This document shows positions 49,813 through 49,923 of a DNA stretch of 64,000 bases, piece after piece. Source of the DNA: Escherichia coli (GTDB lineage: Bacteria > Pseudomonadota > Gammaproteobacteria > Enterobacterales > Enterobacteriaceae); NCBI RefSeq assembly GCF_003334405.1, contig NZ_QOWM01000009.1. One strand, 5' to 3'. The notes below the pieces were generated by a model. The model worked only from the letters and a program-made list of their open reading frames with translations. It did no database searches and was not told the origin of the DNA. Within the stretch, counting starts at the first letter, position 1; each line of letters starts with the position of its first letter. A program made the translations under genes and the position numbers.

Positions 49813-49923
49813 TCCCCTCGCCCCTTTGGGGAGAGGGTTAGGGTGAGGGGAACGTACGGGATGTAAAATTCAACGCGCCAGCATCGCCGGATGCGATGCT
49901 GGCGCATCTTATCCGGCCTACGG
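49813..49923. repeat. GC-rich imperfect palindrome plus REP unit between yhfS and frlR
   Basis: TCCCCTCGCCCCTTTGGGGAGAGGGTTAGGGTGAGGGGAA (49813-49851) followed by REP CGCCGGATGCGATGCTGGCGCATCTTATCCGGCCTACGG (49885-49923). Confidence 0.7.

Follow-up and report, generated by a model that had tools for sequence, protein, structure and literature searches.

BoxC is a listed repeat family of Escherichia coli, for which the literature gives unit sizes of 50-59 nt. Holder et al. (2015, NAR 43:10126, PMC4666352) equate the elements that they call TMECO with BoxC (Bergler et al. 1992) and with PIT elements (Hoyne et al. 2000). The TMECO consensus is 5'-CCCTCNCCC N3-6 GGGNGAGGG N3 GGGNGAGGG-3', and 23 copies are catalogued in MG1655. 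Across 56 strains the elements occupy 63 loci, which are described as hypervariable. The first BoxC report, according to the same authors, was in a paper whose title begins 'Sequences of the envM gene...'; one of the BoxC copies that we fetched lies upstream of fabI (= envM). A literature search for newer functional work on TMECO, PIT or BoxC returned nothing beyond Holder et al. 2015 and repeat catalogues.

REP/BIME sequences provide the other obvious comparison. Like them, BoxC is a short, GC-rich, imperfect intergenic palindrome often found at the 3' ends of genes. Its consensus, however, is unrelated, lacks GCCGGATGCG...CTTATCCGGCCTAC and includes an extra, third G-rich block, and its roughly 20 copies per genome are far below the number of REP/BIME (485 PU-BIME in E. 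coli in the earlier literature). The two kinds of repeat sometimes adjoin, as at the locus described here, where they are 36 nt apart, and at zntA-tusA in strain 2009C-3133, where a BIME stands beside BoxC; in the trpS-yhfZ spacer they are alternative occupants. REP is associated with RayT, gyrase and IHF, whereas we know of no partner protein for BoxC.

A catalogued BoxC copy between yhfS and frlR

The window, the whole 64-kb stretch of E. coli DNA that was analyzed, is 100% identical to E. coli K-12 MG1655. Together with the NC_000913.3 annotation (frlR, 3,504,052-3,504,783; yhfS, 3,504,935-3,506,020), this identity places the core of the element, window positions 49815-49850, at MG1655 3,504,892-3,504,857 on the minus strand (record coordinate = 3,554,707 minus window position). 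Both the 36-mer and these coordinates coincide exactly with TMECO no. 15 in Table 1 of Holder et al. 2015, where it is entered as 'A mm', 75.5 min, antisense. The mapping to MG1655 3,504,857-3,504,892 proved correct and other genomic copies align. The element is thus a known BoxC copy, TMECO no. 15, type A with one mismatch. In itself it adds nothing new, as BoxC has been in E. coli repeat catalogues since the 1990s.

A sequence-only reading of the window had singled out an unusual, G/C-homopolymer-rich imperfect palindrome at 49813-49851, beside a REP. The 40-mer in question, TCCCCTCGCCCCTTTGGGGAGAGGGTTAGGGTGAGGGGAA, is present and ends one base further on, occupying 49813-49852. Its inverted repeat is real and imperfect, but the right arm, given as 'GGGGAGAGGGG', actually reads GGGGAGAGGG and then T, and the palindrome is longer than had been claimed, extending to about 60 nt (Table 1). 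Because BoxC has been described since 1992, the word 'unusual' is true only relative to REP. The proposal of a distinct repeat family was borne out in BoxC/PIT/TMECO, as was the placement next to a REP and between the yhfZ-yhfS cluster and frlR, with genes named according to the MG1655 annotation.

Table 1. Window coordinates of the BoxC copy, its parts and the surrounding features
Feature	Position	Strand	Evidence or remark
BoxC unit, complete, ~60 nt, imperfect palindrome	49800..49859	+	Inverted-repeat arms; alignment with 14 other MG1655 copies; DNA and RNA folds
Block 1, pyrimidine strand CCCTCGCCC	49815..49823	+	Sequence; pattern match; TMECO consensus (Holder 2015)
Loop 1, CTTTG	49824..49828	+	Sequence and family alignment
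Block 2, purine strand GGGAGAGGG, Watson-Crick partner of block 1	49829..49837	+	Sequence; 36-mer fold
Loop 2, TTA, defines 'type A'	49838..49840	+	Sequence; type definition of Holder 2015
Block 3, GGGTGAGGG plus G	49841..49850	+	Sequence; published triplex model; 75-nt folds
Canonical quadruplex-type motif, four G3+ runs, 3-nt loops	49828..49850	+	Regex scan, both strands
yhfS CDS, 361-aa ORF, 3' end faces BoxC	48687..49772	+	ORF list; MG1655 annotation b3376
frlR CDS, convergent with yhfS	49924..50655	-	MG1655 b3375 at 3504052-3504783, mapped by record = 3554707 minus window position
REP unit GCCGGATGCGATGCTGGCGCATCTTATCCGGCCTAC, neighbor, outside BoxC	49886..49921	+	Inverted repeats; REP tail; sub-threshold Rfam naRNA4 (REP-derived) match
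trpS-yhfZ spacer through yhfS, missing in O157:H7-type genomes	42079..49808	+	Right end = left edge of BoxC
REP pair (BIME) after trpS in K-12	42112..42186	.	Same spacer holds a second, direct BoxC in 1,525 other genomes

The complete unit has the order CCGTACTGAACGGTC-CCCTCGCCC-CTTTG-GGGAGAGGG-TTA-GGGTGAGGG-GAACGTACGG. Within it, the core is CCCTCGCCC-CTTTG-GGGAGAGGG-TTA-GGGTGAGGG-G, which up to the last G (49815-49849) fits the TMECO consensus. The central G of block 1 makes this copy an 'mm' (mismatch) variant: CCCTCGCCC and GGGAGAGGG form an inverted repeat with one G.A mismatch, and CCCTCGCCC against the second G block, GGGTGAGGG, leaves one G.T wobble. Outer arms, CCGTAC (49800-49805) and GTACGG (49854-49859), lengthen the palindrome to its ~60 nt and pair in both the DNA and the RNA folds; over the wider arms 49798-49823 and 49841-49866, complementarity is 73%.

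For comparison, we fetched 12 other MG1655 loci at their published coordinates and obtained 14 further BoxC copies. Conservation among type-A copies continues past the 36-mer, on the left as '..GCaCggaCgGTC' and on the right as 'GAAcAg..GCAC', and with these conserved flanks included the imperfect palindrome comes to about 56-60 nt, as is classical for BoxC. CTTTG is the most frequent first loop (6 of the 15 MG1655 copies examined). Where most K-12 copies have GCAC in the outer arms, the copy studied here has GTAC. All 12 of the other loci are intergenic. Every trait tested matches BoxC/PIT/TMECO as described (Bergler 1992; Bachellier 1999; Hoyne 2000; Holder 2015), namely the three-block consensus, the TTA loop, the central G mismatch, the dyad of ~56-60 nt and the dispersed, intergenic copies.

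A search for further BoxC copies inside the 64-kb window found none, so the repeat nature of the element is invisible from the window alone. This single occurrence is what a chance, locus-specific palindrome without relatives would present, an account that has virtually nothing left to recommend it. The G-rich 21-mer and the CCCTCNCCC-N3-6-GGGNGAGGG pattern each occur once in the window and in 0 of 100 dinucleotide-preserving shuffles. With the 23 catalogued MG1655 copies and the 80,813 places found in 5,426 genomes (see below), the shuffles refute the chance palindrome.

BoxC lies in a 151-nt spacer that runs from the yhfS stop (49772) to the frlR stop (49924) and is strictly intergenic. The neighboring REP lies 36 nt downstream and ends in the tail CTTATCCGGCCTAC (49908-49921). 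REP searches matched this tail and five other sites in the window, with no match at BoxC, in agreement with the earlier remark that the element differs from the REP units elsewhere in the window. We likewise rejected BoxC itself as a REP/BIME, because the REP consensus, its tail and its inverted stem are absent from 49800-49859. An Rfam scan of the spacer gave nothing at the gathering score and a weak naRNA4 match on the neighboring REP; an antizyme-frameshift match on BoxC is meaningless (E = 4).

Folding of the G-rich strand and of transcripts

Nearest-neighbor calculations fold the 36-mer into a hairpin of block 1 with block 2 (-8.6 kcal/mol, z -2.4). For the 75-mer spanning 49794-49868 they yield a longer stem, in which block 1 pairs with block 3 and the outer arms are added; here block 3 serves as an alternative hairpin partner of block 1 in DNA (+ strand, -17.1 kcal/mol, z -3.6) and in RNA (+ strand, -34.2 kcal/mol, z -3.5; - strand, -27.3 kcal/mol, z -3.5). 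The whole yhfS-frlR spacer folds at z -5.5. These tools model Watson-Crick and wobble pairs only, and triplexes and quadruplexes are outside their scope. The combination that would have counted against the sequence-only reading, a unique sequence of no predicted stability, is excluded, as the element is multicopy and its hairpin folds stand at z -2.4 to -3.6 against shuffles.

What the single strand can form beyond a hairpin has been studied by others. In the model of Holder et al. 2015, block 3 is a third strand, antiparallel to block 2. By circular dichroism (CD) and 1H-NMR, TMECO oligonucleotides, including 'type A mm', form a well-defined and very stable purine-motif intrastrand triplex in vitro, with a Tm of 74 C for type A mm. 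The negative-control oligonucleotide was the exact 36-mer of TMECO no. 15 with four G-to-C changes. On the basis of many imino-proton signals the authors assign a triplex and not a quadruplex, and with the complementary strand present they report duplex only. In vivo, dimethyl sulfate (DMS) still methylated the relevant guanine N7 at copy no. 3, with no protection, which argues against a Hoogsteen-bonded structure there; according to that article, no triplex was detected in vivo. BoxC shares with H-DNA and other class II triplexes the arrangement of pyrimidine, purine and purine blocks and the G.G:C, A.A:T and T.A:T triplets. Classical H-DNA differs in that it arises in supercoiled duplex DNA, at long homopurine tracts that are mirror repeats, whereas the BoxC triplex forms when a single 36-mer strand folds on itself, and neither duplex DNA nor living cells have yielded it.

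The copies vary at one position in each block. The variable base of block 2 is almost always A, and that of block 1 alternates between T and G, in E. coli and in Mitsuaria, with no compensating change in block 2 or block 3. The variable base of block 3 is only ever T or A, both of which a purine-motif triplex allows over an A:T pair; this variation in block 3 is compatible with the triplex model and is not proof of it. A test across copies for covariation between block 1 and block 3, which would favor the alternative hairpin, found none.

The suggestion of non-B DNA had also named a G-quadruplex, and here its two parts diverge: published CD and NMR data indicate a triplex in vitro, and published NMR and in vivo DMS data speak against a quadruplex. 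Apart from the motif in Table 1, neither strand of the 64-kb window has a canonical one (at least three G in each of four runs, loops of 1-7 nt), which made the guess a reasonable one from sequence alone. BoxC resembles known quadruplex motifs in its four G3-4 runs and 3-nt loops, TTAGGG among them; the G half by itself has no Watson-Crick fold; and Holder et al. 2015 concede that a three-tetrad form is possible in principle, the CD signatures being similar. Even so, an intramolecular G-quadruplex of the G half (GGGG AGA GGG TTA GGG TGA GGGG) with a regulatory effect on transcription or replication where yhfS meets frlR is very unlikely. The imino signals of the full TMECO oligonucleotides were assigned to a defined triplex, the adjacent C-rich block competes through the hairpin, and the complementary strand leaves duplex only. 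Moreover, N7 is also used in G-tetrads, and its methylation by DMS at copy no. 3, the copy tested in vivo, therefore argues against a stable quadruplex too.

We also considered a role at the level of RNA, in which transcribed BoxC would form a stable 3' stem-loop (for yhfS and, as the complement, for frlR) that blocks 3' exonucleases or insulates the convergent transcripts in the manner of REP. The RNA folds of both strands and of the whole spacer given above are in keeping with such a role, as is an RNAz P of 0.99 for a common BoxC structure. Among 13 MG1655 loci, six lie between convergent genes, five between co-directional genes and two between divergent genes, a predominance that would put BoxC mostly in transcribed 3' or intercistronic RNA. 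At tauD-hemB, the BoxC spacer is replaced in about one-third of genomes by an unrelated one of 39 nt, and this alternative allele is a different GC hairpin, as if some hairpin were wanted. Against this, no U tract follows the stem, and a promoter and terminator consensus scan found nothing on the BoxC copy. Hoyne & Maher 2002, as cited in Holder et al. 2015, observed polymerase blockage in vitro; as far as that citation goes, they detected neither promoter nor terminator activity, nor any other activity in vivo, and RNA polymerase was unaffected. A large proportion of strains, moreover, lack BoxC or have a truncated copy or another sequence in its place, and the G/T polymorphism of block 1 is uncompensated in either partner block. 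We judge an RNA-level role improbable.

BoxC copies across genomes and the question of mobility

A genome-wide search for related copies, as the sequence-only reading had proposed, returned matches in all 5,426 complete E. coli genomes (blastn, 81-nt query), in addition to the MG1655 copies aligned above. Each genome holds a median of 17 places (range 1-28), and the 80,813 places are almost all chromosomal. E. coli plasmid records among the matches listed include many of 0.4-4.9 Mb, some of them evidently mislabeled chromosomes, and a few small plasmids; matches in the plasmid collection also include rhizobial and Azospirillum records. The phage collection gave five matches, which are either very small fragments or Campylobacter phage records marked 'UNVERIFIED'. 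We discarded the match to Campylobacter phage A18a as an artifact, since the 3,043 nt examined are 100% E. coli pst operon DNA.

Outside E. coli, we scanned GTDB representative genomes with the TMECO pattern, a scan that speaks to presence across phyla and is not a taxonomic census. The matches listed include a Methylomirabilota MAG, Mitsuaria chitosanitabida and a Ca. Contendobacter MAG. The three blocks are identical in these lineages and in E. coli, while loops and flanks are lineage specific; in Mitsuaria we found at least 150 distinct copies, with GCTTGC as loop 1 and TCTTCGGGCT as the 3' flank. That these three blocks are conserved in groups as distant as Methylomirabilota, Mitsuaria, Ca. 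Contendobacter and rhizobial replicons is not something that a purely passive repeat explains.

Such a distribution invites the reading that BoxC is a non-autonomous, MITE- or REPIN-like element copied by an enzyme that recognizes the folded single strand, with the yhfS-frlR copy as one insertion. Consistent with this are the dispersal of BoxC over 1 to 28 places per genome and over the 63 loci of Holder et al., the imperfect terminal inverted arms of the unit, inverted doublets that resemble REP doublets, and the near-identical Mitsuaria copies with their own loops and flanks, together with copies in several phyla. The comparison of filled and empty sites points the other way: at tauD-hemB and trpS-yhfZ it reveals replacement of the whole spacer, with no precise ends, and no target-site duplication was found. 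A phmmer search for a homologue of E. coli RayT detected none at E <= 10 among the 6,314 ORFs (80 aa or longer) of 120 fetched, motif-rich loci, which total 1.07 Mb and represent fragments of their genomes only. BoxC is, in addition, essentially absent from phage records, where the few matches include E. coli contamination, and many of the listed plasmid matches are to very large replicons. Holder et al. 2015 likewise found no link to mobile elements. On balance we regard mobility as unlikely.

The same 9-nt blocks at high copy in unrelated phyla, along with the uncompensated T/G alternation of block 1 in both E. coli and Mitsuaria, prompt a broader reading in terms of an enzyme substrate. BoxC-type triplex repeats might be substrates of a putative, widespread binding factor or enzyme able to recognize the folded single strand, so that they would spread in REPIN-like fashion and recombination at the yhfS-frlR locus would be a by-product of this activity and not of simple homology. 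We offer this as speculation and think it rather doubtful.

Strain variation and the probable loss of the yhfZ-yhfS cluster from O157:H7-type genomes

At the yhfS-frlR locus, nearly all of the 5,426 genomes have one or more of four junction types (counts are genomes with a match over at least 80% of the junction query). The K-12 architecture, yhfS-BoxC-REP-frlR, is present in 2,953 genomes. In 2,106 genomes yhfS is joined to yhfL, and the frl operon, BoxC and REP (window about 49773-55018) are lacking. A third type, trpS-BoxC-REP-frlR, characterizes the 342 genomes of O157:H7 type, which are without yhfZ-yhfS, and the trpS-BoxC-yhfZ junction, in which a second, direct BoxC copy comes right after trpS, is found in 1,525. 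The BoxC copy studied here sits at the breakpoints of two presence/absence polymorphisms. On a smaller scale, strain MLI121 has a 51-nt deletion (window 49820-49870) that leaves only 'CGGTCCCCTC' of BoxC. With the four junction types, this deletion shows the spacer to be polymorphic among strains, a comparison for which the earlier reading had called. At zntA-tusA, a REP pair is inserted beside BoxC in some strains, strain 2009C-3133 being the case mentioned above. The variation at our locus agrees with the hypervariability described by Holder et al. 2015.

The O157:H7-type junction can be followed base by base. Homology of these genomes to K-12 resumes at 49809, the left edge of BoxC, and the missing segment begins in the trpS-yhfZ spacer (Table 1). 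Strain 89-3156 carries the trpS-BoxC-yhfZ and yhfS-BoxC-REP-frlR junctions together, and its two direct BoxC copies have 43 identical nt in common, ACGGTCCCCTCGCCCCTTTGGGGAGAGGGTTAGGGTGAGGGGA. The left flank of the O157 junction is that of copy 1 in 89-3156, and its right flank is that of copy 2. The junction is apparently the product expected from a crossover within the shared 43 nt, with deletion of the 7.7-kb yhfZ-yhfS cluster, and such a chimeric BoxC would explain the absence of yhfZ-yhfS from O157:H7-type genomes. The direction, deletion, is our inference made without an outgroup, and Campbell-type integration of a circular yhf segment would leave identical sequences.

Holder et al. 2015 allow only that distant copies could 'in principle' recombine. 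They report loss of a large region in only ~10% of comparisons and are cautious about recombination as 'the function'. A role of BoxC in the yhfZ-yhfS deletion is absent from the text of that article that was searched, and we see the BoxC x BoxC chimeric junction as one modest addition to published knowledge. It is one clean case, and it carries no proof that recombination here exceeds that at any other 43-bp repeat, which weighs against a strong form of the plasticity view.

We think it likely that BoxC copy no. 15 has no dedicated local job and is a tolerated repeat whose main consequence is genome plasticity. The unit is a non-coding, intergenic, imperfect palindrome of ~56-60 bp with one pyrimidine and two purine blocks, whose G-rich single strand can, as others have found in vitro, fold back on itself two times to give a hairpin and a third strand. 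In the 3' region common to the convergent yhfS and frlR, the copy would persist with little harm and appears to serve no dedicated cellular function. The short homology between BoxC copies would permit ectopic recombination, and the structure-prone palindrome may promote slippage and local deletions.

For the BoxC family, the locus provides a base-for-base worked example, with two direct copies in many strains and one apparent chimera in O157:H7-type genomes. It gives the published but mechanistically vague claim of BoxC-linked genomic instability a concrete, testable case, and it offers a natural pair of sites at which the effect of the triplex or hairpin on recombination could be gauged beyond that of 43 bp of homology.

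Motif matches in phage and plasmid records and in Mitsuaria

BoxC matches were detected in MG065686.1 and MG065691.1, the "UNVERIFIED" Campylobacter phages A18a and A11a. For A18a, the one of the two covered by our comparison, the match sits in 3,043 nt that show 100% identity with pstCAB-phoU operon DNA of E. coli; this points to contamination or misassembly of the A18a record. Several of the motif-matching "plasmid" records (the set of collection hits H159, H161 and H163) are E. coli replicons of 4.8-4.9 Mb, and these are chromosomes misfiled under plasmids. The plasmid collection also includes Rhizobium, Sinorhizobium and Azospirillum records in which the motif is present at 80-90% identity.

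Mitsuaria chitosanitabida (loci L015-L126) carries at least 150 distinct copies that share the three-block motif of E. coli BoxC but have their own loop (GCTTGC) and their own 3' flank (TCTTCGGGCT). The T/G alternation in block 1 is common to both, and in Mitsuaria it is uncompensated. A further distinction is the orientation of inverted pairs: all 29 found in M. chitosanitabida are head-to-head, at spacings of 66-308 nt, whereas E. coli BoxC pairs are mostly tail-to-tail.

Strain variation at the yhfS-frlR locus

The locus varies in strain MLI121 by a 51-nt deletion that removes most of BoxC, leaving the remnant "cggtcccctc" fused to the flank of the REP. MLI121 also departs from K-12 in the element's left outer arm, which reads "agcgccgg" where K-12 has "cgtactga". 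In 2,106 of the 5,426 complete genomes, the entire frlABCDR operon is absent, together with BoxC and the REP of the yhfS-frlR spacer, and yhfL follows 106 nt after yhfS. On the left, the junction in these genomes falls at the stop codon of yhfS; on the right, it lies immediately upstream of the hairpin "acgccctcggaaaatccagagggcgt".

The frlD gene of O157:H7 TX 376-2, which adjoins the chimeric trpS-BoxC-REP-frlR junction, carries an internal stop and a pseudogene annotation. Strain AST19 (L006) has a yhfS annotated with a frameshift, and its locus exceeds the K-12 length by 44 nt.

A match to the Rfam family naRNA4 falls on the neighboring REP and is sub-threshold, scoring 31.7 bits where the gathering cutoff is 59.5. 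It is consistent with the naRNA4 family being REP-derived and is not evidence of an sRNA at this position.

Coordinates of features and their counterparts in comparison loci
Feature	Window	Comparison locus
trpS-yhfZ spacer	42079-42215	L145:2560-2690 (counterpart with BoxC)
REP pair (BIME), K-12	42112-42186	
frlABCDR operon with spacer BoxC and REP	about 49773-55018	
51-nt deletion, MLI121	49820-49870	L005:1290-1340
naRNA4 match	49859-49918	
frlD pseudogene, O157:H7 TX 376-2		L002:3447-4232

Spacer replacement at tauD-hemB and trpS-yhfZ

Comparison of tauD-hemB alleles (locus L128 versus L139, L140 and L141) revealed that the 106-nt BoxC-containing spacer is replaced in about one-third of E. 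coli genomes by an unrelated 39-nt spacer holding a GCCGGGTT...AACCCGGC hairpin. One strain, 23CRST022, has an additional 51 nt here, a partial duplicate of the BoxC left arm.

Directly after trpS, K-12 carries a REP pair, at the position of which 1,525 other E. coli genomes have a BoxC copy and a different spacer. The exchange between alleles encompasses the entire spacer, from the trpS stop as far as "tcatcactctgaaacc". Because the whole spacer is swapped, a single site is occupied either by REP/BIME or by BoxC.
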